The position numbers and the translations under genes are program-made. Under the pieces are notes generated by a model that saw only the letters and a program-made list of their open reading frames with translations, was not told where the DNA came from and searched no databases. A DNA stretch of 64,000 bases from Styela clava. Its lineage: Eukaryota. Positions 3,001-36,033 of the stretch are shown piece by piece (position 1 is the stretch's first letter; each line of letters opens with the position of its first letter). The DNA is taken from positions 10,602,001-10,666,000 of the forward strand of contig NC_135258.1 of the NCBI RefSeq assembly GCF_964204865.1, in the 5' to 3' direction.

Positions 3001-3549
3001 GTCGTACTTCTCTCACAACATTCACGGTTTCTATCGTTTTACGACAAGGTTCTAAATGCGGCACATAGCAATTAATTTCTCAGGTAGTGGATTGATATTA
3101 CGCGACACACCCGAAATTAGTGTGTATCACTGGTATATATCATTCGTTTATTTTGAATATTAATGTTGTTTCGAGACTGTCACTACTTAATTTTGTACGC
3201 CTGGTATTTTGTGTAAGATTTTCAAATGAAAAATCTTTCGTATATATGATATAATGGTTACTTTCTGCGCGTGTCGGGGATAAAAATATTTGGCGCTGAG
3301 CCTGTCACGCTCGCTAGAGTCTTCTTTTCCATCTTTCCAAAGTACAGCACAACGCTGGAATTCATTCATCAACGCTTTGCTTTTAACGACACGTACAAAT
3401 AAATGTGACTTGAGCACGAAAATGCAATTGTATTAGTCTAAATATGAAAGCTAATTAGTGGGTACTTGACTTCATATTCAATAAAGATAGCAGTATTGAA
3501 GTATTGATAATATTCAAGCGCCTAACTAGAATCAATTTATTTTAAGATC

Positions 3550-5292
3550 ATGTTACGACAAAACTATGCAAAAATATTAGTATGTATCATCATATCAGTA
3601 CTTATTCTGTTATTTCTGAAAGCAGAATATTTTGAATCAAAATTTAACCAACAGGAGCATGATATGAAGAACACACATGGTGTAAAATCGATGCAACATT
3701 CATTTTCATTAAGTTCTCACAATATGAATACAATGTCAAAAATTGGCAACCAGACAAAGGCAAGAAGTATGCATGTTAATGAGATAGAGAATGAATTACA
3801 GAGACTTAGAAGCACAATGGAATGTTTAGCATGCCAACCCCAAGAATCAGTCAAGCAGTTTTGCAGTAAATATCCCGGGAAGTATGGTTGTCCATCGTAT
3901 ATCATGGTCGGAATTACGATTTCTAATCGACCTGGATACACTAAGTTTACTTCGTCTGTTCTTCGGAAGTATAACAATATAGCAGAAGATGACATTCACT
4001 TGTTTGATGATGGTTCTAACAAATTTGATCTCAAAATATTAAAAACATTGTACGGCGATGGAATAAAGTACATTCAGTCAAAAAATAAAATAGGGAAATC
4101 AGAAACTATAAAGACCGTACTTGAAAACTTTCTAGAGGGAAATTACAAGTTATTGATTGTATTAAACGACGATATGATTCTGTTAAAAGATTGGATGAAT
4201 TTCATTGAAAAACATATCACACATACAGAAGGAATACTTTCACTTTATCATCCGTCCGTGAACCATAGTTTTGTTAATGATTGTGAATATCAACAAGGAG
4301 ATTTGTGTGTTGGTAAATCAATTGATGACTCTGGATTCGTTGTGACAAAATCTATTGCTAAAATCTTGGTTTCAGCTATTGATGTTTCTGTACTTGAATA
4401 TAAGTGGAAGGATTTACTCGGAAAACTTTCTGTTCAGATGTTTTACCCAGTAAAATCTCTCTCGATGCATATTGGACAGAAAAAGCAAGACAAAGAAAAT
4501 TGTGGAACAAATGAGGTTGCTCATAGGTTTAACAGATGCGAATATCCATCTTGGATAAAAGAACAAATCGAGTTTTACTTTGACAGATGCACAAGTCCCG
4601 ATGAAATTTATCCAGATAATCCAAACTCCGAAGAATTCAGAACAATAATGAAAAAAAGATTCTGGGTTCGACCGGCCATTTCTTATTCATTTTATGGATA
4701 CAAGACAAGATATGTTGCAATTGCTTTGGCAAATGCGGCTCGGCTATCGAGTGTTTATCCCGGATGGAAGATCTGGTTATTTCATGATAATTCAGTACCA
4801 GATCCTTATTTACAAACGTTTTGTGAATATGATGTCAGATTTATCGATATGACTGGAACGAAGTTAATAAACCAAATGTCCTGGCGCTTTTTAGCAGCTT
4901 CGGAGCCAGTTAAAAGATGGGCAATTCGGGATATAGATTCGTACTTGCTTCCGAGAGGAAAAGCGGCTGTGGACGAATGGATTTCTTCAGGCAAAAACTT
5001 CCACATCCTCAGAGATCATCCTAACCATTCACAACATCGAATAAATGGCGGCAGTTGGGGAGGAAATTCCGAAGCTATGCCTAATATGAGAGAAGAACTT
5101 GAAAAATATATCATCACCAATGCTTACATGGAAGACATGAATTTTTTAAAAAACGTTGTTTGGCCCGTTGCCAGACAATCAGCGTGGATAAATGATGCAT
5201 ACTCTCTCCACAAATTTGGCGATGATCATCCGTTTCCTACAAAACTTAAAATCGAATGGGCCTTTGTTTGCAACGTAATTTTGTGGCCTTAA
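3550..5292 (+). CDS. Intronless type II membrane protein, putative two-domain glycosyltransferase (copy A, intact, 580 aa)
   Basis: 580-aa ORF. N-terminal basic residues and a hydrophobic anchor (ILVCIIISVLILLFL) are followed by a stem and a Cys-rich segment. Next is a GT2/GT-A-like region (IMVGITISNR...IHLFDDGS...LIVLNDDMIL). A second domain reads ISYSFYG...YPGW...MSWRFL...RDIDS...EWISSGKNFHILRDHPNH...GGSWG and contains a DxD motif. A 3' splice acceptor (ttattttaag) lies 3 nt before the ATG. Confidence 0.85.
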   Translation: MLRQNYAKILVCIIISVLILLFLKAEYFESKFNQQEHDMKNTHGVKSMQHSFSLSSHNMNTMSKIGNQTKARSMHVNEIENELQRLRSTMECLACQPQESVKQFCSKYPGKYGCPSYIMVGITISNRPGYTKFTSSVLRKYNNIAEDDIHLFDDGSNKFDLKILKTLYGDGIKYIQSKNKIGKSETIKTVLENFLEGNYKLLIVLNDDMILLKDWMNFIEKHITHTEGILSLYHPSVNHSFVNDCEYQQGDLCVGKSIDDSGFVVTKSIAKILVSAIDVSVLEYKWKDLLGKLSVQMFYPVKSLSMHIGQKKQDKENCGTNEVAHRFNRCEYPSWIKEQIEFYFDRCTSPDEIYPDNPNSEEFRTIMKKRFWVRPAISYSFYGYKTRYVAIALANAARLSSVYPGWKIWLFHDNSVPDPYLQTFCEYDVRFIDMTGTKLINQMSWRFLAASEPVKRWAIRDIDSYLLPRGKAAVDEWISSGKNFHILRDHPNHSQHRINGGSWGGNSEAMPNMREELEKYIITNAYMEDMNFLKNVVWPVARQSAWINDAYSLHKFGDDHPFPTKLKIEWAFVCNVILWP

Positions 5293-6160
5293 ATTTGTCA
5301 TATTTTCCACCAGCCATGTTTTTAAAGCCTTTTCACAACAAAAAAAAAACTAAGTTCCCTACAATAGATGCAAAGCATCATAATTTATCTGTAATATTAT
5401 TTTATCAAGAATATAGGAATTCACTTGAGTTCATTTACTTTCCTAAAAGTGTAAGAATATTGAAATGGAAACATTTCCATTTGTATCACCTAGTTCCTAA
5501 GTTTCCTTACATCAGCGTTGAAAACGCCTTGTTTACAGTTAAACTGAATTAGTGGTTAGTGCCAAGAAAAGAGATTACCTAATTATACATGTGTCCTTCA
5601 TGAGAGTAGATGCAGATGCAGATGACTCGGCTCGCAACATTTTTAGTATTACTCGATGGAAAAGTTTCAATTTCATTCTTTCACTCTGCTCTCGTTTGGT
5701 ATTTGAGCATTTAACCTATTTCCGTGATTACCTTTACTTTATTTTAAAGCACACAACACTTGAATAAAAGCGATTGTGAGATGATATATATAACGTCATA
5801 AATACTGATTTACTTACGTCGCTCGATGTCACTGTTGAACTCTCTCTCTTTACTGCACGCTGTCTAGTGCTATGATTTATGATGTCTATGTTATTTTATA
5901 TCCATAATATACTCAAGCATCCTGAACAGTTGTGTATTTATCCACAAACAAACAAGCACTATTTGAGCATGCGTATGTGTATTAAATTGCTTTATTTTTT
6001 ATGGATGGGCTGATATTCGGATCAGGACTCGAGGAGAGTTTACGCATTTTTTGGAATCGTCATCGAGTCCACTTCATTTTTACTTGGTCTCTTATTCAAT
6101 TCAGGTAATTATGAATTGACGCCTCTAATGTACGCTCACCATTATAAATCTAAATAATCA

Positions 6161-6711
6161 AATGCAGCTCGACTATTGAGTGTTTATCTCGGATGGAAGA
6201 TCTGGTTATTTAAAGATAATTCAGTACCAGATCCCTATTCACAAACGTTTTGTGAATATGATGCCGGATTTGCCGATATGACTGAAATGAAGATAATAAA
6301 TCAAATGTACTGGCGCTTTTAGCAGCTTCGGAGCCAGTTAAAAGGTAGAAAATTTGGGATACAGATTCGTACTTACTTCAGAGAAGAAAAGCGGCTGTGG
6401 ACGAATGAATTTCTTCAGGCAAAAACTTCCACATCCTGAGAGATCATCCTAACCATTCACGACATCCAATAAATGGCAGGAGTTGGGGAGGAAATTCCAA
6501 AGCTATGCTATAGAACGTGAAAAATATATCATCACCAATGCTTACATGAGAGACATGACTTTTTTTATGAAACGTTGTTTGGCCCATTGCCAGAGAATCA
6601 GCGTGGATAAATGATGCATACTTTCTTCACAAGTTTGAAGAAGATTATCCTTTTCCTACCAAACTCAAAATCGAATGGGCCTTCGTTTCCAATATAATTT
6701 TGTGGCTTTAA
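6161..6711 (+). pseudogene. 3' fragment of the glycosyltransferase-like gene (C-terminal domain only), with stops and frameshifts
   Basis: Aligns by eye to 4732-5292, from aatgcagctcga to ttgtggctttaa. TGG>TAG and TGG>TGA stops and indels are present. 3' flank homology continues to about 6883. Confidence 0.9.
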
Positions 6712-8699
6712 ATTTGTCATATTTTTCACCAGCCATAATTTTAAAGCCTTTTCACACAAAAAAGTTCTTTAAAGTAGATGCAAAGCATCATAACTTGTGT
6801 TACTTCCTTTCCTTAGTTTCCTTACACCAGTGCTGAAGGCGCCTTGCTTTGCAGTTCAACTGAATTAGTTGTTAGTGCCAAGAATGGATTGAATCATGAA
6901 TAAATTCCAATATTGCTAAATAGGGTTTTTCAGTATATAGGCTATTCAGATATAGACATACCCTATATAGACATAGTTCATATGCCCTTTACTTTCTACA
7001 CTCTTCTAATTACTTTTGATTCCTTCTTATTTTCTGAATTTAAAATATATATATATATATATATATATTTTGCAGTTTTTAATGAATCAAAACTCGATCA
7101 AAATATGGATCGGTATAAAAGGTAAAATTACTTATAGTACCTACTCTTTTACGAGCATAACTAATATGCACGTATTTCACGCTTCAATTTCTGATATATA
7201 TAATTAAATAGCGCATTATTTAAACTATGATCCATTTTAACTACCTGGACTTCGTAGTCTCTGAGATTTCATGATCTCTAGCCGCTTGGTTTGCATTCCG
7301 TAGCCTATAACTAAATGCAGAAACACCAGTCGGAAATAGATCAATTCTCTAATTTTATTTACTCAAGCTGTGTCTACTACATCCGCATCGCTAGCATTCG
7401 TCAAAATAAGCTGCAGGATTGCAGAGGTAGATGCATATTTTGGTGACATTTAATTGGAGCTTGAGCAAATACTTCGTGCTACCGTAATACAAACACGAAT
7501 TTTCTACAGCGAACGCTAGTAATAGGGTATTGGAGGGGACATGGCTAGGGCAGGTATCCTACATAAAATAAAGTTCCAGCGTCTTATGACAAACGTTTTT
7601 ATAGTGCATATGATATAAACTGCGAGAAATAGTCAGATTCGGAGTCTACAACACTTCCATCATAGTCAGCGCCGGATTAACCGTTAAACAATACAAGCAC
7701 GTGCCTAGGGCAACAAGCCAAGAGGGGCACTACAGAAATTTTAGGGCAGAATTTTATATAGTTTATCGGTGTTTATTAAAATATTACAAGTTCACCAGAC
7801 GACTCAAACTTCAAAATGTTCGCTTATTTTTTGTCTCCAAGTATATATCATATCATCCTTCTTTGTCAAAAATAAACACTGAAACCTATTTATTGGACAC
7901 GAAAAGGGCCTATGAGTCGTTTTGTAAAATTGTTGTTGTTTTTTCTTTCTTGTATTCTCCTTGTTGCTGCATTTTTGTTTTAAAAAAAATTCTTTTCTCT
8001 TCAACAATTGGACCAATGAACTATTTGCATTATGTGACAGTTCGATGATCGCATTTCAACGATCTAGTGGTCAGCGAAGTCGGAATCCCGAGATTCAAAC
8101 CTTTTTTTAACGCTTTGTGCCTTCATTTTAGTAAAAACACTCCTCTGTTTCCAAGCGTGGGTCATGTGGCAGTAGTGACGAAACACAGAGCCGACTTAAC
8201 GCCGCGCAATCCAGTTTTTTTTCGGCAAGGTTCCGAAATACCAACTTAGGCGGACTTGGTGGTTATTTGACGATGGCACTAAGCTTGTTCACGCTGCAAG
8301 TTTTTAAATTACTCAAATATAACAATTCGTAATAAAATGATTGTCACAAGAAAAGTGACATAAGAAAAACACGGCGGAAACGTATTTCCTTGCCCATCAC
8401 ACAGTGTCTGGTTTGATTTCAAGTAATATCTGTCACGAAAGAATATAACTTAAAGCGACATCAAACGCGAGATGCGGAAAATACAACGTTAATTTTAGGG
8501 AATTAATTTTTAAATAACTGAAGGCTTTATATTTCTTCTTTGCAATACTCATGCAACAAAATAATAGTCTGATTAGAACGGTAAACTCTCGTTGTTTATT
8601 CAATTAAAAGTAAGTAAACTTGCGATATTTCGATCACTTTTGGGTTTTCTCCGACTTGTGGCCCACGAGACCTTTTCAAAAGTTTTTGCGGTCCTTCAA

Positions 8700-10322
8700 C
8701 AGGGTTGCCAACTGTTCAATGATAAAATAATCTAGAATTTTAACAAAAAATATCTGGAAAAAAACAAATTCAAAAATAATAAACCAAATAATAATCCAAA
8801 CATACACTAAAAAAATAGAAAAATATCAAGATTTACGGAGAGAAATTGGAAAGATATGAAATGTAAAGACTAGATTTTATACCTGTTGTTGTTGGAGCGT
8901 TGAGTGCAATATCAAACAAGCTAGAAGGTTATTTAAAAGATATGAATTTGCCTAATAGATTGGAATCCTTGCAAAAAGCGGCTCTTTTGGAAAGTGCAAG
9001 AATACTGAGAAGGGTTCTTGAAATCTAAGGACGCGGGAAGTGTCTCGATTTTAAGTTAAAATATACACCAGTTAAAGAACAGTGAATAAATTTAACATCC
9101 AAACATACAAAAGTTACCTTTTCAATGAAAAAACGAAAATTGTAATATAAAGAAAAATATTCACTCATATCAATACAGCTTTTCGAACTTAAGTAACGTA
9201 ACTTATTAATTATCATGAGAAAAAATGAAAGCTTGTTGCCTCCAAGATTTAATGAAGATCATGTAGGTAAATAGAACAATTGAATACTTGAAACTTTCTT
9301 TATTTTTTTTCAAATAAATGATATTTCGCAGCCTTCCGAGTTTTCTTAGGACGTAAGATGTTAAAATATTATTTGCAATCAATTCAAAAGATTTTCCATT
9401 TTTCAGGACACACCGTTTCTGAAAATACCAAAATTATATGATATCGTAAAGCAAAAATGCAATGAATCCATTCCTATGGTCCAAGCTCGACACACGTTTG
9501 GTCGAGTGTCGGGCGGTATTGTCGATGATAAATTAAAAAAAATTGTCACGCGTGGAGGAGGCAGTTCTTTCATTCGGACACTATCGAAGGACATTAGACA
9601 ACATTATTATATAACGATAATAACTGAAAACTTAGATTTTAGTACTAAAAAGTGTATAATACGCCATTTGTTTCAACACAGTATTTATAGATCACATAAA
9701 TTTTGAACAGTTCAAGGCATAATGAATTCGTTAAAATTCTTATATTCTTATATTCCAGACTGTTCGGTAACAAATAAAATCCAATCAATAATCCATCAAT
9801 ATGGTGGGAGAATTCCCAAATTTGAATAACAATAAAAATAAAATAGGATTCGGTATTCCGGGTTCGATTTAAGTATTCTATAATAGTAAATTATTTTATA
9901 TTGCCCATCCCTACTTATATATAGGGGTAAAATTAGTGAACAACAGCATTTCTGATTTCAGATTTTCGCATAACAACAGCATTCAGTTCACGTCACTTTC
10001 ACAGTTTCTAATACTTGACAATATTTTGGCTAACCTCTCTCCTTGTTTTGAATACTATTAACCTTGATTGGAAGGCTTTTCTGTAATAAATCCAGAAATC
10101 CTATCTTTTTAAATGTACTGTTAGGTACTAGTGAAAAAAACTTCACTTCGTTATCACTAAAGAACAATGCAAAATAACATTTGTCATAATGATCTAAATA
10201 TATCTAAATGAGTGCTAAAATTATCCAGAAAATAATCTAACATCTGAATGAATATTTGTTACATCTGAATCATACGAAAATAATCTAAATCTAGATTAAA
10301 ATAATTCAAGTTGGCAACACCG
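8700..10322 (-). mobile_element. hAT DNA transposon (decayed), inserted into a smaller hAT-like MITE
   Basis: TIRs cagggttgccaac / gttggcaacaccg. Perfect 8-bp TSD tccttcaa at 8692-8699 and 10323-10330. Minus-strand transposase-like remnants (DFWIYY; IGMDSLH...FRNG). Confidence 0.8.
8812..9028 (+). mobile_element. 3' end of an R4/Dong-like (RLE) non-LTR retrotransposon ORF
   Basis: Translates to KIEKYQDLRREIGKI*NVKTRF/IPVVVGALSAISNKLEGYLKDMNLPNRLESLQKAALLESARILRRVLEI*. This matches the typical C-terminus of restriction-like-endonuclease LINEs. Confidence 0.75.
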
Positions 10323-12604: not shown

Positions 12605-12678
12605 GACATTGTGGCGACGTCTTTCGCGACATTGTGGCGACGTCTTTCGCAACATTGTGGCGACGTCTTCCGCGACAT
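12605..12678 (+). repeat. 23-bp tandem repeat, 3.2 copies (gacattgtggcgacgtctttcgc)
   Basis: Read directly. Units are contiguous with no spacers and lie inside the hAT element. Confidence 0.9.
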
Positions 12679-13129
12679 CTTGGGGCCGAGTAACCACACT
12701 TTTCGCTTTTCCGGCTCCAATTCATTGCGAATGCGCTCAATCGAATCTCGCAAGATTCAAAAAACTAAAAATCGGCACGTATGCTTTTTCTGTTCTGCGT
12801 GCTTTTCCTGATTAATATAACCATCCACATAAAACTTTAAGCATATATCTTTGTTTGAACCAGAAAACTGTAAAGAACAGTATAATATTCCAGTAAGACA
12901 TGAACTTGTTGCAGCCCTGCAGGAGGTCGCGAGACGCGCAAAAATCATGGACCGCAGAGATTTTTCCCAGTTTTTTGAGCAGGCACAGTAGAATTTTGAT
13001 CCTGGTGCCAAGTTACCGACGACTTATCATTGTAATTTCATTTCGTTTGAGACGTCGATCAACTACAGAAGGATATATATGATAAACCCGATAAAAAAGA
13101 AAAAGCTTGATGAATATTTGTGATTCTAC

Positions 13130-13761
13130 TTTACAGTCCAGATTTAAAAAAAAATTCACTGTCACAATTTAGGATATCTTTTGATAACGAATACCCATCG
13201 CTAAGTAATCGAGCAATCAAACTATTGTCCATATTTTCAACCAGTCACTGCGTTATGCAAAAAAGCATTTTCATCACTAGCTTTAATTAAAACACAGCAA
13301 AGAAATCTGCCGCACGCCGGTGAAGAGCTACGTGTTGCAGAAACTTCTTTGAGGCCTCGTTTGCAATCCTATACTGGAAACGAAACAGCGGCAAAATTAT
13401 CACTCTAGTTAATAATGTTTGTACATGATTTCGCTTGTACATGTTGTTTATGTCAGATGTTTTATGTGTGTCTTTCTTAAGCATAATGGGTGCCCAACAC
13501 TGCATTTCTTTACGCAAATTTATGGGGTTGTTTTCTGTTTCACCCATTTCAATTTTTAGCCACATTATTTGATAGTTTTTTTTCGTGTGATATGTTTTTA
13601 AGTGTGCCTTTCCAGAAGCATATTGAGTGCCCGACACTCCATTATATTACGCAAATTTATGTTATGCTTCTCTGTTTCAATCATTTCAATTTTTGCCGGT
13701 CCGCGAGTACATTTAATTTTATTCTACCGGTCCGCCAGGGTAGAAAGGTTGGAAACCACTG
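13130..13761 (+). mobile_element. 3' remnant of a ZBED5/SCAND3-like hAT transposase plus its right end
   Basis: EYPSLSNRAIKLLSIFSTS... and ...EELRVAETSLRPRLQ resemble the hAT dimerisation domain. The remnant ends in aaaggttggaaaccactg. Confidence 0.6.
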
Positions 13762-15320
13762 GGCTAAACGAACAATCCGTTTAGTAGCAATAGATCTTCC
13801 TCTGTTGTACTTTTTGACTGTTAAATTACATTTTTCTACAAAATCTGCCTAATTTATTTGAAATTTTACAGTAAATAGCAAAATCTTTTGTGCGAGAATT
13901 TCTGCACCATTCATAAATGACGGAATTGTTTTTTAAGTTTTAAAAATTTGAATTAAAAAAGGAACTTCAGTTTCATAAACTGCTAGTAAAAAAAAACGGG
14001 GTTATTAAGAGGTTTCTAATATGAACTAATGGGTGTGAGATTGTATATCGATATTGTTTTGAGCGTGATTCAGTCTGAATACTGAGATATCTAAATCAGG
14101 GTTTCCCAAACTGGAGGGCCAGGGGTCTAGCGACGAATTTTGGGGGTCGCGAAGGGGACACAAATTTCACACAAAGTTAGACCTTTAGTGAAACTAGTGA
14201 AAAACATAAATCTCACGATTTCGAATATGATCAGAGTAGCGGCGCGCTTGCATAACAATGCCGGCTTTGATTGTTAGACCCGAGATGTGGCGTGTTTCCG
14301 AATCACCCGCGGGCCGCACAGAAGTATCTAGCGGGCCGCATGCGGCCCGCGGGCCGTATGTTGAGCAGGCCTGCTGTGCAGTAATTAACTTAACTCTCTC
14401 TTACCAGAGAAGACCTTACGTTAAGCAATCCATGCTTAGCTTGATGGAAATGAATCATAATCACACAGTAGCGCAGTTGCCATAGACTGCACTGATTCAC
14501 TGTGGTTTATGCAATATTGCCATCACTGGACGTTTGAAACGAAAGAATAAACGTAGAACTCGTTTATTCATAGGGGTATAGAAACTTACACAATACGCGG
14601 ACGTAATTTATACTGCCAGATTTTGGGAAACGGGCCCTGGTATAAACCACGTACACAGTGGAATGCGTGTGTTCTGAGAATGTATTTGCGTGAAAATAAA
14701 CATCTGAACGGAAACAAGATACATGTACAAAATCTTTCTGCTTAAATCACGATCGTGCGAAATGCAACCCTGACAAATATATGTGAGTTTATGTGAGTTT
14801 CAGCCTTAGTTTAATTCTGCAATTGCGATTGCAGTAACGATGTGATTAACTACGCTAAAATTACTGAATTAGATATCAGTGGTCCACCTGTAAACAGCAG
14901 GGGGCTAGTTAATTTTTTAATAAAATTGCTGGTTTATAAATTTAAAAAGTGAAAAAAATTTCAATAGTAAAGTACGATATAGGGAGAAATTTTTAAGGTG
15001 TAGCACAAGTTCGAAGGTATATTACATACTGACAGACTGAAGCGGGACCCTGTATTGTATATATTGAATGATGAAATAATGCTTCCCGCTTGATATTTAT
15101 TCTACTTTCTACAGTTCTATAGGAACTTTACTTTCTATTTGTGTGCCCCACTGAATGAACTGGTGGCTCTACATCATCATCAGTACGTTGTCAAGGGCAT
15201 AAAATCTGACAAATCATGAGGCTTTTGTACTGAGTAAAATTGTTGGCTTTCTCTGGCTTTTTTATGTCTTGATTTGGCTTTTTTTGATCGTTGGGGTCTG
15301 GCAACTTTGACCCCCAAAAC

Positions 15321-15474
15321 CAGTCAAACAGTTTTGCAGTAAATACCCCGGAAAGTATGGTTGTCTGGCCATCGTATATCATGGTCGGAAATCGAAATTA
15401 CAATTTCCAATCGACCTGGATACACTAAGTTTACTTCGTCTGTTCTTCGGAGTATAACAGTATAGCAGATGATG
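15321..15474 (+). pseudogene. Small internal fragment of the glycosyltransferase-like gene
   Basis: cagtcaaacagttttgcagtaaataccccgg...tatagcagatgatg matches 3848-3991, with small insertions and a deletion. Confidence 0.9.
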
Positions 15475-17051
15475 TCGAGTGGCAAAATAATGTCTGATTG
15501 ATGATATATTCACTATTGATAGTTCCACTACTTCTTTAGATCAACATAAAATTCTAAAAAAGGGGAACGCTGTGTATATACATGCCTTATACGCTCTATG
15601 GGCAACTGGGCGATGAACAATGCAATAACGTCAATTTAGGCAAGCTGGTTACTAACTGCTATCCCCACTTACGTGGTTCACAAGTATCTATTAGTGAGTG
15701 CTGAATAGGTACCCTGGCCTATGGTACTTTGATGATACGACAAATTTGATCTTAGCTTATAATTATTTACGGCACATTACATTTACTCACACAATTACCC
15801 GTGTAGCGGCTTCTTTTTCCGTTGGCCAGCAGAACGATGGACAATTCTACAAGATTAAGGGGTCTGTCGAGGCTTTGTCCAAATCCAGGTAGACGACGTT
15901 AATTGGATATTTTAGGTATGAAAATTAGTTAGATAGATCGGTGGCTCTTCATGTTGGAAAATCTTTGTGTGTCACTTTCAAACTTGGTATCAAAACTTCT
16001 ATGTTATTGTGGTATGTATCACTTATTGTTCAATGTAAGGTACTTTTAGAATGTGCCAAAATAAATCCGAAGCATTTTGATGAGTGTAATGAAGAGGAAA
16101 AACTAAATATACAGTATATATTAGCATGCGAGTATGTAGGCTAATATGAAGTGACATGTAGTATTGTAAGATGAAGTTGCCATTCTTTGGTTTGAATAAA
16201 CGTTGCAGTAAATGACTTAATCTTACCAGAGCATTTTAGCAAAATACTACAGTATTTAGAAATCCTTGCTTCAGCTTGATTCTAAATTGAAATCAATGAA
16301 ATGAATCAAAGTGATCTATCTCTCCATATATTCATCAGTCAAATAGAGACATCAGCAAGAAAAAGCTAGTTTGGTGAATTTTAATCACACAGTAGCGCAG
16401 TTGTCGTAGACTGCGCTGATTCACTGTGGGCTACGAAATATCTCCACCATTGGATGTTTTTGACAAAAGAAAAACTGTGTTAATATGTAGAACTCATTTA
16501 TTCGTAGGAATATAGAAACTTGCACAATACGCGGGCGTAATTTATGCTGCCAGATGTTGGTAAACGACGCCTGGTATGAACCCCGCATACAGAATGTAAA
16601 CAATCTTCACAGATTACTTTTATCGAATGAGGCCATGGGCTCGTTGACCAATTGGGGTGGTGTGCTTACGCTTACAGAAACTCCAAATCGGCTATTGATT
16701 GAAATATGAAACACAACTTGTAACTAGCGTAAAGTAGATGTAATCATAGGGCGGATGTGAGCGTAAACCTTTATAATGTTGCTTGCGCATAAAAAGATAT
16801 AAAGTTGGCTGTGCACGTGGTTAAGAAAAACGTAAATTAGGAAATTAATGTTAAGATATCAGTTCGTTAAACTGTATAAATGAAGAATTTAAAAGGTGAT
16901 TTATTATGCGAAGACAATTGTAAACAGGAAAATTTGTAAATACCAATAACATGAGAAAAACACGGTAGCGATGTTGAAATATGTTATATATACCACAATC
17001 CTCGGTCATTCATATTCATTCATTCCATTCCATAATCAGTCATTCGTTTCA

Positions 17052-18526
17052 AAGTTTGACACCTCTTTTTGGTAAGTTACAACGTCCCAGCATACGGACA
17101 GCGGCCGTGTAGCGTGACTCAAGATATGGGATGAAATTAGTTTTAGGGGAACTGAAACTAATATTTTGCCATATCCGTCTTTCCTTTTTCCGCTTTACTT
17201 TTTCCGACATGACAAACGACTGTCCGGCACATTTAGATTTATTCTACTGTAAAATCTTCATAACATTTGGCGAGTGGATGTACCTTCCTCATCTTGACAT
17301 GGAGCAGTCTAAAATGTTTTGCGCACAATTCATCAGTGTTTTATCCATTGAGTGCTTAGAGGACTAGAAATTCGTTATGTTTTGTGTTATATTAGGTTTC
17401 CATTCGGCCCATGGCCCAATTCGGAATATATTCTAGATTCAAAAACAGAAGACAGAATTCATTTTCCCCTAACATTAAGCATACAATAAATTTATTTCAG
17501 ATTTAATAATAAAAATCTAAATTCATTTAGTAATTCTATAATCCCTCTTTAGATGCGCAGGCCTCTCAAAATGGTTCATGTTCACAGATTGATACATATT
17601 GTACATTTATTGAAAACTACGCGCACGGGCAGTTTTGTGTCTTATATTTTCTACCAAGCGTTAGTTTGTGTACAGTTTATTGCTAACAGCCAAAGAATAG
17701 TCCACCGAAAACAGATTTTCAGCCACCACACTTCTCGTGTGATCAACGACCAGCTGTTGTGGGGTGTTATGACATCATAGATCGGCGCCTTTTGTACATT
17801 TATCGAAAAGTACGCGAACCTGCTGTTTTATGTTTTATATTTTCCACCAAGCGTTAGTTTGATTATTTTGTGGACAGTTCATTGACAACTATGAAAAAAT
17901 AATTTACTGAAGAGAGATTTTCAGCCACCAAATTTGCGTGTTTTCGACGATCAGCAGTTGTGGGGTATTATGACATTATAGATTGGTACCTGTTGTATAT
18001 TTATCAAGAACTACGCGCACCGGGAGTTTTATGTCTTATGTTGCGCAAACAATATTCATTGGCTTACCGGTTAATGATGCTCATATCATATTACATTTAC
18101 TTTATGCTTGTTAGAATTCATTTTTTAGATATCAATGAAAAGCAATTTTCGAGTTTGTGTAGGCGTAACGAGAATACCCCCACCCCACATAATACTATGC
18201 GTATGGCGATGCGTTTTAATCGAAGGCGTTGTAAGGTGTGCCATGATAGTTTCCGCCAAACGTTGATTTGATCAGTTAGTCGTTGGTTTTGGGACAGTTC
18301 ATTGCCAACATCCAAAGAATAGTCGCGCATCGACAGTTTTGTATCCTATTGTGCGCAATCAACATGTAAAGCTTTGTCCCTGAATGCTAATACAGTTTAG
18401 CCGCTCCGGAGTTTTTTCGAAGTTTGACTCCTCTTTTTGGTAAGTTACGACGTCCCAGCATACGGACAGCGGTCGTGTAGAGTGACTCAAGATATGAGAT
18501 GAAATTAGTTTTAGGGGGACTGAAAC
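17052..18526 (+). repeat. About 107-bp direct repeats (17052-17158, 18420-18526) flanking an approximately 195-bp tandem array (17599-18040)
   Basis: aagtttgac...ggtaagttac(a/g)acgtcccagcatacggacagcgg...ctgaaac occurs twice. Tandem units start ttgta(c/t)atttat at about 17599, 17792 and 17993. Confidence 0.8.
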
Positions 18527-18940
18527 GCTTTTTATCACATTATATATATGAACGACCAGATGTTGTGGGGTAATATGTTATTCGATTGCGACTTTGCATA
18601 TATCTGTTCCTCTGCTTGGATCTGCGTTTTTTTATATTTAGGCTGATGTACCGTACATATACCTCGTAGATGCAACCGCATGCATATGAGTTGGCGGTAT
18701 ATGCATATTCTTGGTAATATATGTGTGTCATGTTACCAACCTTATCGCTTGTACGTGAACATTAGAACCGAGACAAAATACATGTACAAGACTTGCTGAC
18801 CTAAATCACAATTGTGCGACATGTAACCCTGACAAATAAAACAGCAGTTTGGGACTGATACGCTATAAGGGGTCACAGTGGTTCCCAAACTTTTTCAGCT
18901 TGCGGCACATTTAAAACCGAATGAAAAAAGTCGCGGAAAT

Positions 18941-21900
18941 CCTTTTATCCAATTCAAGATTTCTAAATCACCTAATCGGCAAACTTATTAATTGGCAGAA
19001 AAGAACGATCGGTTTGGTCGGTCAATTGTAACAAATCTTCATCGTTTTTTGCTTTCTGTCAGCGCGGTAACTTAATATTCGCAGAGCCACTAAGATGCAA
19101 ATGGCAAATCATATAATTACTTGGTAACTGATTATTGAATAGCATTTGTAAGCATATACCAAAAACTGAAGCTTTTTGAACCGAATAACAAGAAGAGTTT
19201 TGATGAGAATTTCATATTTATTCTGGGGGAGAGGAAAGCTCGGGTTGGGGTTAGTCTAACTTTAACGATGATAATGATGTTTGCCAGGCCACAATTTCAG
19301 AATAGAAACTAAGTAACAGTATTGGAATTGACATGAAAAATAAAATAAAAGAACAACAATTGTATTATTACGATTTTACGATAATTGGGGCCATGGAGAA
19401 AGTATTTGGGAGCCAGTTATCTAATCTAATGTATAAGTTGTATTCGAAACCCCAAAGATTACACGTTGATTGTTGTATTCTTCAATAGGCGCTTCGCAGG
19501 CTTTTAATACGGCAAGGTCGCTCTAGAAATTTTCATCAATGATTATCTGAGAAAAAAACGGGCGCAGATCTTTTTCATTTCCCCTCTCATCAAACATACC
19601 CACCCGCATGTTCATCAAATTATGCTCACGGCAAAGGTCGCAGTACAAATAAAAGTTAAGCACGAAAATTTAATTTGATTAGTTTAAATGTTGAAACTAA
19701 TCATTGGGTGCTCGGCTTCATATTTAGTAGTATTATTGAAATATTGATAATATTCATTCAAGGACCAAACTAGAATCAACTTATTTTAATATTATGTTAC
19801 TAAAAAACTATGCAAAAATATTGGTATGTATCATCGTATCAGCACTTTTTCTGAAAGTTTTGAAAGCAGGATATTTTGAATCGAAATGTGACCAACACGG
19901 ACATGAAATTAAGAAAAGTTTCGATGTAAAAAAGTTGCTACAGCCTTATTCCAATATAAATGCAATGTCAAAAGTTGACAATCAAACAAAGACGAAAAAT
20001 ATGCATGTTTATGAGATAGAGAAAGAATTACAGAGACTCAAAAGAACAAGGGAATGTATAGCATGCCAACATCACGAATCTGTCAAGCAGTTTTGCAGTA
20101 AATACCCCGGGAGGTATGGTTGTCCATCGTATATCATGGTTGGAATTACAATTTCCAATCGACCTGGATACACTAAGTTTACTTCATCTGTTCTTCGGAA
20201 GTATAACAATAGAGCAGAAGATGATATTCATTTATTTGAATATGGTTCTAACAAATTTGATCTCAAAATATTAAAAACATGGTACGGCGATGGAATAAAG
20301 TACATTCAGTCAAAAAATAAAATATGGAAACCAGAAATAATGAAGGCTGTACTGGAACACTTTTTGAAAACAAATTACAAGTTATTGATAGTATTAAACG
20401 ACGATATGATTCTGTTAAAAGATTGGATGAATTTCATTGAAAAACTTATCACGCATACAGACGGAATACTTTCACTTTATCATCCATCCATGAACCATAG
20501 TTTTGTTAAATGATTGTGAATATCAACAAGGTGATTTATGTGTTGGTGAATCAATAGATGATTCTGGTTTTGTTGTGACAAAATCTTTTGCTAAAACTAT
20601 GATTTCAGCAATTGATGTTTCTGTACGTGAATATGGGTGGAAGGATATACTCGAAAAACTTCCTGTTCAGATGTTTTACCCAGTAAAATCTCTCTCGATG
20701 CACATTGGACAGAAAAACCAAGACAAACAAAATTGTGGAACAAATGAGGTTGCTCATAGGTTCAACAGATGCGAATATCCATCTTGGATAAAAGAACAAA
20801 TCGAGTTTTACTTCGACAGATGCACAAGTCCCGATGAACTTTATCCAGATAATCCAAACTCTGAAAAATTTAAAACAATAATGAAAAAAAAATTCTGGGT
20901 TCGACCGGCGATTTCATATTCATTTTATGGATATAAAACAAGATATGTTGCAATTGCTTTGGCAAATGCGGCTCGGCTATCGAGTGTTTATCCCGGATGG
21001 AAGATCTGGTTATTTCATGATAATTCAGTACCAGATCCTTATTTACAAACGTTTTGTGAATATGATGTCAGATTTATCGATATGACTGGAACGAAGTTAA
21101 CAAATCAAATGTCCTGGCGTTTTTAGCAGCTTCGGAGCCAGTTAAAAGGTGGGCAATTCGGGATATAGATTCGTACTTACTTCCGAGAGGAAAAGCGGCT
21201 GTGGACGAATGGTTTTCTTCAGGCAAAAATTTCCACATCCTGAGAGATCATCCTAACCATTCACGACATCCAATAAATGGCGGGAGTTGGGGAGGAAATT
21301 CCGAAGCTATGCCTAATATGAGAGAAGAACTTGAAAAATATATCATCACCAATGCTTACATGCAAGACATGAAATTTTTAAGAAATGTTGTTTGGCCCGT
21401 TGCCAAAGAATCAGCGTGGATAAATGATGCATACTCAATCCACAAGTTTGGTGAGGATCATCCTTTTCCTACAAAACTTGAAATCGAATGGGCCTTTGTT
21501 TGCAGCGTAATTTTGTGGCCTTAAATTTGTCATATTTCTCACTAGCCATAATTTAAAAGCTTTTTTACAAAATAAAAACTAAGTTCCTTACAGTAGATGC
21601 AAAGCATCATAATTTATCTGTAATATTACTTTATCAAAAATATAGTAATTCACGTGAGTTCAGTTACTTTCCTAAAAGTCTAAGAATATTGGAATTGAGA
21701 TATTCCCATTTGTGTTACTTACTTCCAACCCAATAGGATCGGCCTGGTCATGAATGGCCAATCTGTGTCATAATTTGGGAATATGGCTGAATTAAATGTA
21801 TTTTGGGGGGTCAATAGTATTTCATAGTTGTCTGCATGTGAACAAAACCAATTTCAAAACTCAAAATGTTTGAGTTTAAATTATCCATGCTTGATCCGAG

Positions 21901-23066: not shown

Positions 23067-23599
23067 AATTAACTACATACGCTATAAACATACATTTGCA
23101 ATGGCTCGTATAAGAATGATTTCACTTCTTCGTCGCTAACACCTCATCATCTTATATTCGGATCCAAGCTCAGATTCGAGTCGAAATCACGCATTTTCGG
23201 CTCTCTGAATAGATATTGAGTCCTTGACATGTTTTTTCCGAGTCAAATCAAAATAAGATGACTAGTCGTATCTGCAGACATACATTTGTGATGTATCACA
23301 GATTCTTATTATTGAAACGATTCCAATTTCACCAATTATACTGTTCATTTTACGGTTTTAACATTTTTACTATATTTTAAGATTTGATGGCTCCGCTTAA
23401 TTGAATCAAATCAACAACAATAAAAACACAAAGAAGCGTAAAATAATAACAACATACTTTGCTGGCTATAGTTAATATGACTAATCAAATTTATCTTAAT
23501 TCCTTTTTATTCATTTCATTGCCCTCCCTTCTCTAGCGTTTTTGCCTCTCTTCTCTAATCTATTTTTGGCTTGGGTCATTCTATTAAAGTCGTTTAGGA

Positions 23600-24190
23600 C
23601 TTCTTCGTTACGAGGATAAATTATTTCTTTTCCTTTCTTGCTTTTCCCTGGAAGAATGCCTTTTGTGATCAACCAGGGACTAGTTCATTATGTTTTTGAT
23701 AGGAGTAATGTCAGGAGTAATCAGCACTGTAATTAAGATCAAATATCTTTTGAACGAGATCGAATAACCTGGTTTAGGTGGGAATTATTGATGCTTTCAT
23801 AAGCTCTTGAATTTAAAATCATTATTTCCTGAAGAAGGAGGTATTATTCAGATGATTATTCAAAAAATATATTCAACCCGGATGCCACCATTAAGTATGT
23901 TCTGTCTAATATTTTGTCTCGTATTTCTGACTAATAGCAGGAATTGAGAAGAAAAATTATTACGCAGCCGGGATATCTCTCGTCCCGTGAATTTTCCTTG
24001 CTATTCATTTGATACCAAACTGAACTGATGATAAAACACTTCAGCCATATGTTTCTTGCCTAAACAACATGGGTGCAAGTGATTCGTCGTTTTTATTTTT
24101 TTTTCTCCATGAAAACCGACCGAAAAAGTTTTTAAATAAACGACGTGATAATTGTCTGTGATTTTAATGCTGTCCACTTTCATATGGCTT
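23600..24190 (-). mobile_element. Possible decayed LINE reverse transcriptase remnant
   Basis: Broken frames give RRITC/CLGK, ILNSRAYESINNSHL and KGILPG in the order of RT motifs. Highly degenerate. Confidence 0.3.
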
Positions 24191-24578
24191 TTGTAAGTTT
24201 AAAAATTTAGCTTTAAAAAATATATTGGAATATAATACATCATTATGGGATTATTATTTCTGCAGATCATTTTACGGGAAAACGACGAAAAAAATTCACT
24301 CTAATTATTAGAGCTGCAATTGAGGCCTAAAACAAAGCAGTGAAAGAATTGAATGATGAATTAGAATTAGACGCTAAAAACAAGACATTGGCAAGAAAGC
24401 TGTAATTGCTGAAAGATAATATGTTAATTAATCATATGTAGTTTGACAAAATATATATCACATAAACCTCAAATGTCCATCTGTATCGGCAATGTACGGT
24501 ATTCTTATTCACTTTACGCAGAAAGTGTTAGATTGAATCGTAACTTTTCATATAATACTGGGACCACACTGGGAATAG

Positions 24579-26567
24579 AATAGACCTTAGTTCAAAACCC
24601 ATCCTATACGCGCGAAAAATAAAAGTGACATGAACAAACAAATTTTGTCATTATCTCTTACGGAGAATGTGATCACCAAAGCAGAAATTTGCATTTTTTG
24701 TTATTTTTTTAGTTATCCTTCATTGTAGACGTGTGCAGTTTTGAGGATAGAATATTTTTTATATACTTTTTTATATACTATAATGGGCGTGGTGTTTCCG
24801 CTGGCGTCATTCTCACTATCCAGGGTCGTCCAACCTTTTGGGATGAAGGGCCACGCCCACATGTAGTTTACAAATAATTGCGCGGGCCACTTAACATGGT
24901 AGTTATGTTCTAGTTTTGCTACACTGACTACAGGTTAATGATAAAACAAAGAATACTCTCACACCAAACTTTCACAATTATGTTGTCACAAGACTGTTGT
25001 TTCCCAACCATTGATGGCGCACCATCAGTGGTTATTCCCGAAAGTTTCGCCAAAGACAAGCCTAGACGCTTGATCATTTCCATCACATCTTCTAACAAAT
25101 CAACGCCTCTAGACGTACCTTTAATAGGGACAATGGTTGCGAGCTCTTCGGTAATTTCAAAATCATCATTAACTCCCCGCAAGAAGATCGCCAAATGAGC
25201 AGTAACCTTGATGTCAGTGCTTTCGTCAAGCGCCAAGGATTACGATGAAAATTTTTCCGTTTTTGCAACTAAAGTTTCCGCTATAGAGTTTCCAAACTCT
25301 ATAACACGACGAGTTCGCAAACACCTCTTTTATTTCCGGACGTAAAACATTGGCAAACCGAACAATACATAATATACATTCCTTAAAGAATTCTCAGTTT
25401 GTGAATGGCTTCGATTGTTTTGCGATAACGTCATATAGAGTAGTAAAAGACCAAGTGTGTAAGCGACTATGGCACCTTTATTTATCGATATCTCCTCTTA
25501 GTTGGTTTCGATTCAAAATGACACTCATGGCTCGTTGGAAAGGGCTGGCAAAGCGCATTTTAGTAAATAAACAAATCGTTTGTATCACATTTTCGTATGC
25601 TACATCACTCAAAATATAGTTTCGCTCAATTTTTCTAATCAATTCTGAAAAATAAAGCGGGGCACAGGTTGGACGACCCTGCAGTATACCATGACATTCT
25701 GCTAACGCGTTGTGGTCTGTGAAATATGCGCTCCAACTGCTCGTGTTTCTTATTATGTGATAACAAAATACCGGAACCACAACATACCGTGTTTGGCGTT
25801 TAAAGAAAGACCTATTTTAGTTAGTAAAGTTTATCCAGAATGGCAGTCTGTTCACGTATTCAGTCATATTCACTTTTCCTTACTGGCTTTGCGCATATCC
25901 TTCCTATACAGCGAGCGACTTTTCTCTGAAGGCATGCTGACGTGTTTTTTAATCTAGTTGGGATTTTAATATTGAATTTAATGTAATAGTTTGGAGATAT
26001 TTATCTCTGTTTTTGTATACAACTTATCCTACCTGACCTATTTGCTGAAATTTCCGTTACCCCTAGGTACGGTACAGGTAGTTTAAAATAAATAACACGT
26101 CAGCTTGCCTCCAGTAGATGGTTGCTAACTGTACAGGTATAAATGCGTGAAACCAGTAAACAAACGATAGTGAAACGGTATAGATAATAGACTGCCAATG
26201 TCAAACGCTTCCAGTACCGGTACTCGAGGCGACATTAGCGCTGCAGTTAGCGCGCATATTTCACAGGTTGGCAGAATGTCATGGTCTAGGTGGAGTGACG
26301 TCACCGGCAACACCACGCCCATTAAAATTTTAGTGTACGATTATCAAAAAACTTGACCATGTTTATCGTCATAAAAATATGGAAGAATATCTAACAATCA
26401 CTCTATATATAAAACTGTCCACGTTTACAACGAAAGATAAATAAAAAATGCAAATTTCTGCCCTGGTGATCCCATTCCCCATAAGAGCCAACCAATGTTA
26501 AAATTGTTTTGTTGATTTCACTTTTATTTTTGCGCGTAGAACGGGTTTTGAATGACTAAGGTCTATT
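24579..26567. mobile_element. Foldback-type non-autonomous DNA element with long (about 240-280 bp) imperfect TIRs
   Basis: 24579-24815 is the reverse complement of about 26292-26567 (aatagaccttag...taatgggcgtggtg / caccacgcccatta...ctaaggtctatt). Confidence 0.8.
24821..25681 (-). mobile_element. Internally deleted hAT transposon, GTF2IRD2/SPIN-like transposase fragment
   Basis: Perfect 16-bp TIR cagggtcgtccaacct. ORF 24928-25236 reads ALDESTDIKVTAHLAIFLRGV...ITTDGAPSMVG (hAT catalytic D motifs). The TSD is degenerate. Confidence 0.9.
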
Positions 26568-27189
26568 GCAGAAGTGGTTGAATACAGGGTAATAGTGAGC
26601 TAAAAGGCTCCAGAAACTAGTCGGCGTAATAACTACGGTTACGGTTGAGTCTGTAGCTTGGATAGTGGCAGCGGAAAATTCTACCAAAATGAATCAGTGT
26701 GATTTGGGCATAGTCTAACTCTAGTAATCAAATTAGAACAAGGAGTGGTAGAGACTTCTCACTCTCGTCTGGTAGATATCGGTCGCTTCACCTTGCGATT
26801 GAGTTCCGTAAGAATTAGCATGCAATCGCTGATTCACATTTCCTCAGACAAGTCATCAAAATTACCTTGCCTCCAGTCCGTTCGCCCTTTATACGGGAAA
26901 TTGGGTTCTAAAAGGACTGAATTCAAGTACATGTTCTGATTCAAATATTGGATCTGCAAATGTCCATGGACTAACCAACTTGCCCAATGTGTAACAAAAT
27001 GGTTAGGCAATGCCGTACCGGAAAATATCCCGGTTCTTCCAAACTGTAGTAGCATCTTACCTAGCAGTGTCTGCTCATATAGAATCTTGTTCGTACTTTG
27101 ATAAACGTAAGCATGTCAACACGTGTAGCCTCAGTTAAGCGGTAGGAAACATCAAATTCATTATTACTTATCAATTTTAATCGGTATGT

Positions 27190-27470
27190 AGATAGGTATT
27201 TGTCTGTCTGTCTGTTAGATGCACGCGATATCTCACGAAAGCCAGATTGAATCTGCTCCAAATTTTGCATGTGCATTCAGCATATGTCGGACCAGAAGCC
27301 TATCGATTTTGGATGAAATATGTCGTATAATAAGCGAGGTATTAATTGATTAGTGATGGGACACAAGGTGTCACTATGGAGTAAGAACGCTGTTTTGGGG
27401 GATCCCCTAACGTTCGATCGATAAGTCTTCGGTCTCTGACCGATATTATCGTTTATTTTTTTATTCCGTC
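27190..27470 (+). mobile_element. Possible Helentron-associated (DINE/HINE-like) interspersed element
   Basis: A tgtctgtctgtctg microsatellite is followed by a gatatctcacgaaa...ccaaattttgcatg core. This is pattern resemblance only. Confidence 0.35.
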
Positions 27471-27639
27471 GGTTTACATTGAAAGATATTAAAATAAAGA
27501 AAAATGACACATTATCGTTAATTTGTTTGTCGTAATATTTTGAAATAATCATGGTTTTCTGCTCAGTCTGAGTATTCTGGTTTAAAAAGATTTTGTGGAA
27601 AACAATGCATTGAGGTATCTGCGGATATGTGAACAAATA

Positions 27640-29337
27640 TCACAAGACGTTGCTATTGCTTTCAAATGCAATGACAGAAGCAGACTTTTTAGCCAAAGGC
27701 CAAATAATTTCTTTTAAAAATGTTTTTTCTTTGCCATTTACATTTTTTTCAAAGTACTTGCTTATTTCATCTCGCATGATGTGTATTGCATCATGTGTTC
27801 CTCCCCACTTGACAGATGAATTTTCACTGGAATTGTTTTTTATGATACAAAACTTTTTTCCTGATGATATCCATTTATCCACAGTGGCTTTTTCTCTGGG
27901 AAACAAATAGGAGTCAATATCTCTTACAAGCCATCTTTTTACCGGTTCTGATGCGATTGCATATCGCCAAGTCTTTTGGCTGGGATATTTTTCTTTACTT
28001 ATGTCTATAGTTTTAATGTCGTACTCACACAGTGATTTCAAATAAGGCAGCGGTATGGAACTATTAACAAAAAACCATATTTTCCACCCCGGATATACAT
28101 TGGATACCCTAGCTGCGTTTCCAATGGCACTAGCGACATAAGTCGCTTTGTGGTCGAGAAACGAATATGAAATAGCTGGTCTAACCCATAATCGTGTTCT
28201 CATCTTTGTTATGAATACTTCTGAATCTGGATTATCGGGATAAATTTCATCAGAACTTGTGCATCTGTCGAAGTAAAATTCGATTTGTTCTTTTATCCAA
28301 GATGGATATTCACATCTGTTAAACCTATGTGCAACCTCATTTGTTCCACAATTTTCTTTATCTTGGTCTTTTTGTCCAATATGCATTGTTAGCGATTTTG
28401 CTGGATAAAAAAGATGGATTGATTCATCATGAAGTAATCTATTCAATCCTTGTACTATTTTAACGCCATCAACTTTTGAAAGCCACGATATAGCAAAAGA
28501 TTTTGTCAAAACGAATCCAGAATCTGCTATTGAGTCTCCAACGCATAAATCGCCTTGTTGATTTTTACAATCATATGCATAGCTATGGTTTACGGACGGG
28601 TGATAAAGTGAGAGTATTCCGTCTGTATGTGTGATATGCTCTTCGATGAAATTCATCCAATGTTTCAGGAGAATCATATCGTCATCTAATATCATCAGTA
28701 GTTTGTATTTTGATTTTATGAAAACTTCAAGAGCTCGTTTGATAACATAATGTTTTCCATACATTTGTGCAGTCCAGAAGTATTTTACATATTTTCCATA
28801 AAATCTGTGCATTGTCTTTGCATTTATTTTATCTGATCCATCGTTGAATAAGTGAATATCAGTTTCCGCTATATTATTGTATTTACGGATCACTGAAGAG
28901 GTGAATTTAATGTAACCAATTTGGTTATACACAGGTATCGCGATCATAATATAAGAAGGACAGTAATATTTTCCTGGATACTGAGCGCAAAATGTCTTCA
29001 CTGGTTCTTGAGGCTGGCAAGCGAGACATAGCCTTATTTTTTCTAATCTGGATAGTTCCGCATTTATCTCTAAAACGTGAGGAGAAATTTTCCCTCTCGT
29101 ATTTCGTTTGAGGTCTGTGGTTACTCGTTGACGAACATTCCATCTTTCTTGCTCAATAACTTTTTGACTTCCGAAAGCAATGTGGTCTCTGAGTGAGACT
29201 GCTTTCATAAGGATTCCTTGGTGACATTCTTCTTTAAAACAAAAATGACACCAAGCGCCGAAGAAAATAGCACACACTACACTAATCAAATATAAGAATA
29301 ATCTTTTTTGCGTTTGTAGAATACGCTTTGCTGCCAT
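27640..29337 (-). CDS. Intronless divergent paralog of the two-domain glycosyltransferase-like protein (copy C, intact, 565 aa)
   Basis: 565-aa ORF with a TM anchor (LFLYLISVVCAIFFGAW). GT2-type motifs IAIPVYNQ, FNDGSD and ILDDDMIL are present. The C-domain retains RDIDS but lacks HILRDHPNH. An acceptor (ttttattccgcag) lies 1 nt before the ATG. Confidence 0.85.
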   Translation of the reverse strand: MAAKRILQTQKRLFLYLISVVCAIFFGAWCHFCFKEECHQGILMKAVSLRDHIAFGSQKVIEQERWNVRQRVTTDLKRNTRGKISPHVLEINAELSRLEKIRLCLACQPQEPVKTFCAQYPGKYYCPSYIMIAIPVYNQIGYIKFTSSVIRKYNNIAETDIHLFNDGSDKINAKTMHRFYGKYVKYFWTAQMYGKHYVIKRALEVFIKSKYKLLMILDDDMILLKHWMNFIEEHITHTDGILSLYHPSVNHSYAYDCKNQQGDLCVGDSIADSGFVLTKSFAISWLSKVDGVKIVQGLNRLLHDESIHLFYPAKSLTMHIGQKDQDKENCGTNEVAHRFNRCEYPSWIKEQIEFYFDRCTSSDEIYPDNPDSEVFITKMRTRLWVRPAISYSFLDHKATYVASAIGNAARVSNVYPGWKIWFFVNSSIPLPYLKSLCEYDIKTIDISKEKYPSQKTWRYAIASEPVKRWLVRDIDSYLFPREKATVDKWISSGKKFCIIKNNSSENSSVKWGGTHDAIHIMRDEISKYFEKNVNGKEKTFLKEIIWPLAKKSASVIAFESNSNVL

Positions 29338-35847: not shown

Positions 35848-36033
35848 CCGAAGCCTCAACTAAAAGTGGGAAGAGTACTAATAGAAGATTTAATGTAGAC
35901 CACTGGAGCAATAGCGGCTATATATAGATTTACTCCTGTGATAAATATGTCAGTAGTTAAAGCTTTGAAACAATAAGATAGATGATGAGTTCTACAACCG
36001 GTTACTTGACGGAGAAAACAAATTGTGACTCAC

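Follow-up and report, generated by a model that had tools for sequence, protein, structure and literature searches.

A window of 64,000 nucleotides of an animal genome (contig C10, 10602001-10666000; feature coordinates are those of the window) carries two intact genes, copies A and C, whose products fuse two glycosyltransferase (GT) domains behind a membrane anchor. We consider it rather probable that A and C belong to a set of 16 copies derived from a single gene, taken up by horizontal transfer from a large marine eukaryotic DNA virus, and that the encoded proteins are membrane-anchored in the Golgi, with the C-terminal domain (domain 2, D2) predicted to be active and the N-terminal one (domain 1, D1) a putative dead helper. 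A first-pass annotation of the window had instead proposed that A and C form an obligate pair in which each chain contributes one active site. That proposal is not supported, as D1 is damaged equally and evolves at an equal rate in A and C, and 12 further copies combine an intact D2 with a worse D1. Because this arrangement recurs in those 12 copies, a drifted D1 with an intact D2 is the norm of the family and not a complement to C.

Copy A runs from a transmembrane segment through a stem, a Cys repeat, D1 and a Cys linker to D2, and C likewise has a hydrophobic N-terminus followed by a Cys repeat, D1, a Cys linker and D2. The type II membrane layout read by the first-pass annotation agrees with the N-terminal hydrophobic segments, and the motifs it quoted are present in single uninterrupted open reading frames (ORFs): ITISNR (residue 122), LNDD (205), RDHPNH (488) and GGSWG (500) in A, and IPVYNQ (134), FNDGS (164), LDDD (217), KNNSSE (500) and VKWGG (509) in C. 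The two proteins are 61% identical across 473 residues. For the comparison of their active sites, the 16 copies were aligned with references chosen for their score and coverage and without regard to motifs: 106 D1 segments (at least 60 bits and at least 170 columns; identical segments and three fusion proteins excluded) and 122 D2 segments (100 bits or more, leaving out clam and fusion proteins). The D1 core set consists of R127, D154, D206, D208, D283 and H307, numbered as in copy A; H240 was kept out of it, since a neighbouring His makes the register of its apparent loss doubtful. The D2 core set holds ten residues.

All six D1 core residues are found in 98/106 references and five in a further 7/106. 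Copies A, C and L002 (the other copies are labelled L002-L016) keep four of the six, L003 keeps three and the remaining 12 keep none to two. Judged by these residues, D1 is damaged in 16/16 copies, and in A and C to an equal extent; 32 columns are conserved in 80% or more of the references, and of these A keeps 19 and C 17. The annotation had called D1 of C canonical, which holds for the textbook motifs IPxYN and DxD, both Asp residues of the latter being kept in C only (1/16), but not for two further residues: Arg127, found in 106/106 references, is missing, and Asp283, found in 105/106, is Val in C and Glu in A. Asp283 survives in one copy of 16, L007, itself without DxD and His. In the model of C this position opens the helix on which inverting GT-A enzymes carry their base, and in such enzymes the base is the Asp with which helix F begins (PMC7185993). 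Over the base stretch A, C and the relative P0021 (P-numbers denote relatives) align without gaps by our own count; the DW of P0002 is a possible base motif, depending on gap placement.

For D2, 110/122 references keep all ten core residues, and RDxD is present in 16/16 copies. The counts are nine or ten in twelve copies, nine in A, eight in L002, five in L003 and three in C, so that 14/16 have eight to ten. The loss of D2 reported for C is thus real, with three of ten core residues left and the C-terminal tail gone; none of the other reading frames encodes the tail. D2 of A, which had been called complete, is nearly so (9/10), His548 having become Asn. What stands of the supposed reciprocal decay is therefore the loss in C, and not a greater drift of D1 in A, where the two copies tie at four of six.

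Branch lengths tell the same story. In the D1 tree, built from 11/16 copies, three proteins from Logan and 34/106 references, the terminal branches of A, C, L002 and L003 measure 0.26, 0.29, 0.27 and 0.24 on a stem of 0.83, whereas in the D2 tree (36/122 references) that of A measures 0.09 and that of C 0.75. Since the D1 branches are equal, the D1 cores tie and D2 is accelerated in C alone, the only change specific to the pair, by these measures, is the loss of D2 in C. We therefore regard as very unlikely an obligate A+C heterodimer in which D1 of C and D2 of A alternately add two sugars, in the manner of an EXT-like co-polymerase. Such a complex would account for the retention of IPxYN, DGS, DDD and the C-terminal His in D1 of C alongside its lost D2, for the purifying selection on C (in D1, a nonsynonymous proportion pN of 0.25 at a synonymous proportion pS of 0.66) and for the presence of A and C in the same RNA-like runs; it is at odds with the missing base Asp and Arg127, with the ties in core residues and branch lengths, and with 12 copies elsewhere that have an intact D2, a worse D1 and no C-like neighbour that we saw. 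A complex prediction for A+C scored 0.31 against a mark of 0.34; it was run on chains without alignments and without control complexes, and weighs neither way on binding.

Both genes are likely transcribed. Copy C is represented by 0.53-0.88 of sampled words in nine runs guessed to be RNA (X1-X9; three studies, none on record as RNA), and A is covered by contigs of X5 (3542-5954) and X9 and patchily by X1. Runs X1, X5 and X9 appear RNA-like because five unique intergenic bins are empty there and covered in the comparison run X10. Copy B, a likely pseudogene, is almost uncovered in X1, X5 and X9, which is no proof of silence, and the assembled contigs give neither expression rank nor tissue. 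No indel that would explain the frameshifts of B as assembly errors is present among the contig matches listed, X10 possibly being the source sample.

The same locus, rich in relics, raises the question of whether C is itself a dying duplicate like B, its late D2 having a pN of 0.42 and its tail being gone. We give this little credence. Synonymous sites between A and C are near saturation (pS 0.66-0.83 outside the linker), so that no ratio of nonsynonymous to synonymous rates (dN/dS) can be given for D2 of this pair, and despite that the ORF of C is intact and identity to A still stands at 59, 86 and 64% in D1, the linker and the first half of D2; for these reasons we do not take C to be a pseudogene.

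Both domains are predicted to be GT-A folds, as the annotation had claimed, and the top structural matches of the models of C D1 (pLDDT 91) and A D2 (pLDDT 92) are all GT-A. The best folds for D1 are POMGNT1 (Z 16.5, root-mean-square deviation 3.1, 190 residues aligned) and GnT-I (Z 16.0); the D1 profile also aligns with POMGNT1 over its full length (E 3e-5), with FDW falling on the WDWD stretch. D2 reaches Z 13.5-12 with many GT-A enzymes (Foldseek E 5e-6) and has no clear closest family, and the two domains share no profile similarity (hhalign probability 0.24%). A search of Pfam with A, C and the pieces of B gave nothing over the cut-offs, including PF00535 (GT2), PF01501, GT47 and GT64; PHROGs gave no match, NCBIfam gave a weak PgaC match for C D1 only, and in a PDB sequence search C reached only E 0.06 and D2 had no match. 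The fusion thus has no named family in Pfam, NCBIfam or PHROGs, as had been suspected, and D2 itself, by sequence comparison, belongs to a family without a name in these three and without a sequence match in the PDB. Intact relatives of D1, unlike A and C, exceed the Pfam GT2 cut-off.

A search of the genome with A returned 25 matches, consisting of 16 long single ORFs (508-632 codons; on contigs C10, C13, C17 and C18; the start codon of L015 is ambiguous) and nine pieces of broken copies. Queries with a D1-only relative (P0026) and a D2-only relative (P0008) recovered the identical 16 loci and relics, and with them no stand-alone D1 or D2 and no intact D1 was found in the host genome. Neither the size of this family nor its likely horizontal origin had been part of the first-pass annotation. 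An N-terminal hydrophobic segment is present in 16/16 copies, the animal coding regions have no introns, and the D1+D2 fusion also occurs in three unnamed Logan proteins. Across the 16 copies the GC content at third codon positions is 0.30-0.36, and in many of them an acceptor-like AG sits right upstream of the ATG; both features fit a long residence in the host. This AG, preceded by a T-rich tract and at most about 15 bases from the ATG (window 3530-3549 and 29338-29360; L005-L016), is a candidate acceptor of a 5' untranslated-region intron or of trans-splicing; contigs of X5 and X9 start at 3542 and 3552. A second C10 pair, L002 and L003 (C10:10249765-10266398), lies ~340 kb from A and C, and L003, whose D2 is half decayed (5/10 core residues), is sister to C in the D2 tree (support 89). 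We found no description of the fusion family in the literature, most subscription journals lying outside the search.

How might such a protein work? It would first be anchored as a type II membrane protein, the hydrophobic segment being observed and the Golgi location presumed. D2, with its observed RDxD and HD motifs and predicted fold, may bind Mn2+ and a nucleoside diphosphate sugar, and would then transfer a single sugar. Retention of configuration seems slightly favoured, as D2 has D[QM]xFL at the start of the helix on which inverting enzymes carry xED; we take this motif to resemble the DQ of GT8. D1 lacks the Asp base in 15/16 copies, the sixteenth lacking DxD and His, and is nonetheless under purifying selection, since its dN/dS between A and B is 0.25 (D2, 0.21); it may hold the acceptor or the fold, as in B3GLCT. 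Copy C, having lost most of the D2 site too, would likely be a non-catalytic partner or glycan binder. What the enzymes make is likely a lineage-specific extracellular glycan. The host is likely a tunicate, as the annotation had guessed, given a single marker, one exon-sized GH6 match above the Pfam cut-off (35.4 bits against 27; 0/14 control genomes), GH6 genes being carried by tunicates (PMC7464555). Since tunics contain sulfated glycans (PMC7540406), the product may, as no more than a reasonable guess, be a tunic or surface glycan.

Among known enzymes B3GLCT (GT31; PMC13597200) is the best working analogue, with tandem GT-A domains, a linker, a dead but retained N-terminal domain and an active C-terminal one. 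The same pattern is seen here in a degenerate D1 under selection (dN/dS 0.25) and a D2 with eight to ten core residues in 14/16 copies; however, the domains of B3GLCT are duplicates of one family, whereas D1 and D2 are dissimilar in profile and neither is GT31. The analogy drawn by the annotation with EXT1/EXT2 (GT47+GT64) is sound in that these are two-domain type II paralogues with one pseudo-active site, but it breaks down in architecture and in the split of activity: both EXT chains transfer N-acetylglucosamine and only the glucuronosyltransferase domain of EXT2 is dead (PMC9675754). The N-terminal domain of EXT proteins is moreover GT-B where ours is GT-A, no Pfam match to GT47 or GT64 was obtained, and no copy has a complete D1. 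LARGE1/2 (GT8+GT49) and CHSY/CHPF also join two GT-A domains, and for CHPF pseudoenzyme partners are known; LARGE1 ranks only 45th for D2 (Z 10.3), and LARGE has two active sites against one predicted here. GT13 (POMGNT1, GnT-I) provides the closest folds for D1 and GT2 is the Pfam family whose cut-off its intact relatives pass, but A and C match neither Pfam family, lack the base Asp and are 14-15% identical to GT13.

Several observations weigh against the explanation that we prefer. The majority of the references lack taxonomy and many nearly duplicate one another, and the trees are quick SH-aLRT trees with midpoint roots. Some GT-A enzymes are active without the xED Asp (PMC7185993), so that loss of the base does not prove D1 dead, and A has a Glu at that position. 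The four C10 copies keep the predicted D1 metal ligands D208 (4/4) and H307 (3/4), and it is they that lack His548 of D2 (4/4), a residue present in 118/122 D2 references and Asn in A. Among the D2 fold matches, glycogenin and Gat1 stand high by Foldseek and retaining and inverting enzymes tie by Z. Reciprocity, if there is any, would lie between clades and not between A and C, and we keep D1 catalysis in the C10 clade under consideration.

One such possibility, which we hold to be improbable, is that D1 of A, C, L002 and L003 works by a base-free, retaining-like route, A being bifunctional and C drifting towards a D1-only enzyme. These copies do keep three or four of the six D1 core residues against none to two in the other 12; in 11 copies D208 and H307 have gone jointly, replaced by E and Q, and A, C, L002 and L016 still have both; within the C10 clade D2 declines in steps (nine, eight, five and three of ten); and loss of the base goes with switches of mechanism (PMC7185993). 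Yet in the four copies the base position is occupied by E, V, H and A, and N, D, E and H stand at the first position of DxD, so that no common new site can be discerned, and D1 is the faster-diverging domain between A and L002 (dN 0.28 vs 0.08 for D2). A bolder variant, to be given marginally less weight still as a whole, divides two active sites between gene clades of a virus-derived Golgi glycan synthase: the C10 copies would act without a base at the D1 metal site (D208, mostly H307) while losing D2 stepwise, 11 copies of C13, C17 and C18 would have a full D2 without the D1 metal ligands, and mixed complexes would make a tunicate-specific polysaccharide. Those 11 copies have E208, Q307 and His548, and L016 retains D208, H307 and His548.

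The viral ancestry in our preferred explanation is suggested mainly by the relatives of D1. Among the best 15 D1 matches in 1.84 billion representatives (31-38% identity, E values of 2e-42 to 7e-28), 14 are non-fusion proteins. Most of these are long modular proteins that carry GT10, GT29, GT31, GT8, FkbM, LicD or other domains, and several share the membrane anchor, the Cys repeat and the Cys tail of D1. In the D1 tree the fusion clade (SH-aLRT 100) stands beside these modular proteins and is set off from 19 references that are more distant (97). The repeat, unnamed, with six Cys in ~33 residues, occurs in three copies in the genes of C17 and C18 (L005-L013), as a half copy in those of C10, and also in P0021, P0023, P0024 and P0030; a profile of the genome's own Cys repeats matches 16 non-fusion proteins and P0001 among 280, and no shuffled sequence. 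P0030 is encoded on a 74-kb metagenome contig (L029), where a flank of 21.6 kb is 87% coding and holds eukaryote-type genes for a kinase, Snf2-RING, dUTPase, trypsin-PDZ, Ras, SET and DHFR; of these, trypsin, Ras and dUTPase belong to the functions named for mirusviruses or giant viruses (PMC10132985). Atlas neighbours of D1 and D2 are mostly viral clusters (0.96-0.97). On L029, positions 12900-21569 contain seven ORFs of 196-722 residues without a Pfam match, and capsid hallmark genes are possibly among them.

An origin from a marine protist, or from an old and patchy eukaryotic family, is nonetheless the most serious of the competing accounts, if an unlikely one, and it does not depend on which of the two domains is active. 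In the 21.6 kb flank neither a capsid nor a polymerase gene was identified; P0030 is the single D1 relative tied to a contig, and its second domain differs from D2; and anchor, Cys repeat, D1 and D2 were not found together outside the fusion group in 272 fetched proteins, six of which have D1+D2 (three of the fusion group and three distant). Three viral contig scans and GenBank phages gave no match. The D2 clade (SH-aLRT 99) holds clam proteins and unnamed modular proteins, some maybe algal, so that the donor may have been a protist; D2s at a greater distance occur in fusions with GT2, TPR or methyltransferase domains, and one named algal protein and other eukaryote entries carry D2. Against such a donor stand the anchor and Cys repeat shared with the closest D1 matches, one of them in a gene-dense virus-like contig, the lack of introns in the animal coding regions, and the absence of a cellular name on the 10 top D1 relatives looked up. 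The clam proteins (Mercenaria mercenaria P0159, P0160 and P0162) have an intact D2, 51-52% identical to that of A, preceded by a different domain that seems decayed and whose end can be aligned with that of P0187; as they are separate from the fusion clade, the clam likely acquired D2 independently. A comparable history is that of tunicate CesA and GH6-1, horizontally acquired glyco-enzyme genes that are probably bacterial, found in all tunicates and with ancient introns (PMC7464555), where the fusion family is viral- or protist-like in origin, intronless in its coding region and present in 16 copies.

The remaining features of the window are collected with those of A, B and C below.

Features of the 64,000-nt window (D1, D2, domains 1 and 2; aa, amino acids)
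Feature	Position	Strand	Remarks
Copy A, 580 aa	3550-5292	+	Intact single ORF; predicted type II Golgi glycosyltransferase
A, hydrophobic anchor, aa 7-25	3568-3624	+	Top 19-aa hydropathy window 2.64
A, half Cys repeat	3814-3891	+	Common to virus-type modular glyco-proteins; repeat profile
A, D1, aa 116-312, GT13/GT2-like GT-A	3895-4485	+	R127, D154, D208, H307 kept; D206 to N; predicted base D283 to E
A, Cys-containing D1 tail and linker	4486-4665	+	83-89% identity across four C10 copies; found in virus-type relatives too
A, D2, aa 373-580, unnamed GT-A family	4666-5289	+	RDxD, RDHxxH, GGxWG, DMxFL; 9/10 core residues; predicted active
Relic of A-like D2 and 3' flank	6159-6796	+	87% identity to A; stops and indels
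Short relic, Cys repeat and D1 start	15310-15474	+	87% identity to A
Copy B	19794-21524	+	89% identity to A; two frameshifts, near 20508 and near 21120
Weak DUF4371 match	24931-25239	-	Probably transposon relic
Copy C, 565 aa	27640-29337	-	Intact ORF; likely pseudoenzyme
C, D2, aa 385-565	27643-28185	-	RDxD alone kept (3/10 core residues); RDHxxH, HD and tail gone
C, D1, aa 128-324	28366-28956	-	IPxYN, NDGS, DDD, C-terminal His kept; R127 to Q; predicted base to Val (near 28455)
Two long Cys/Ser/acid-rich frames	36030-36941 and 38332-39099	-	Without Pfam match; both are probably large exons of a single host gene
Imperfect palindromes, MITE-like (miniature inverted-repeat transposable element)	49258-49727 and 53633-53734		Self-BLAST
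Multi-exon DOMON and copper type II monooxygenase gene (dopamine beta-hydroxylase/MOXD1-like)	52946-56382	-	Pfam
Weak DUF7813 match	58256-58477	+	22.3 bits against cut-off 27

The multi-exon monooxygenase gene 24 kb from C indicates an ordinary animal chromosome context. DUF4371 is, we presume, tied to transposons. An endogenous virus block in the window was rejected, there being no further long ORFs and no viral Pfam match in the 85 of 125 short frames scanned. A single X9 contig joins the 3' end of A (4678-5288) to the 3' flank of the first relic (6708-6998) and would stem either from a haplotype that carries a deletion or from misassembly across similar copies.

Taken as we read it, the fusion family is an uncatalogued, expanded two-domain glycosyltransferase family, probably virus-derived, and its D2 belongs to a family of uncatalogued glycosyltransferases that is widespread in bacteria, phages and marine eukaryotes. 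The occurrence of D2 behind another domain in a clam hints at repeated acquisition by marine animals. Domain-based standard surveys would overlook the fusion genes, which are thus testable candidates for tunicate glycans that lack known enzymes. The family suggests a probable transfer of glycosylation machinery from a virus to a chordate, where it was domesticated and expanded to 16 copies.

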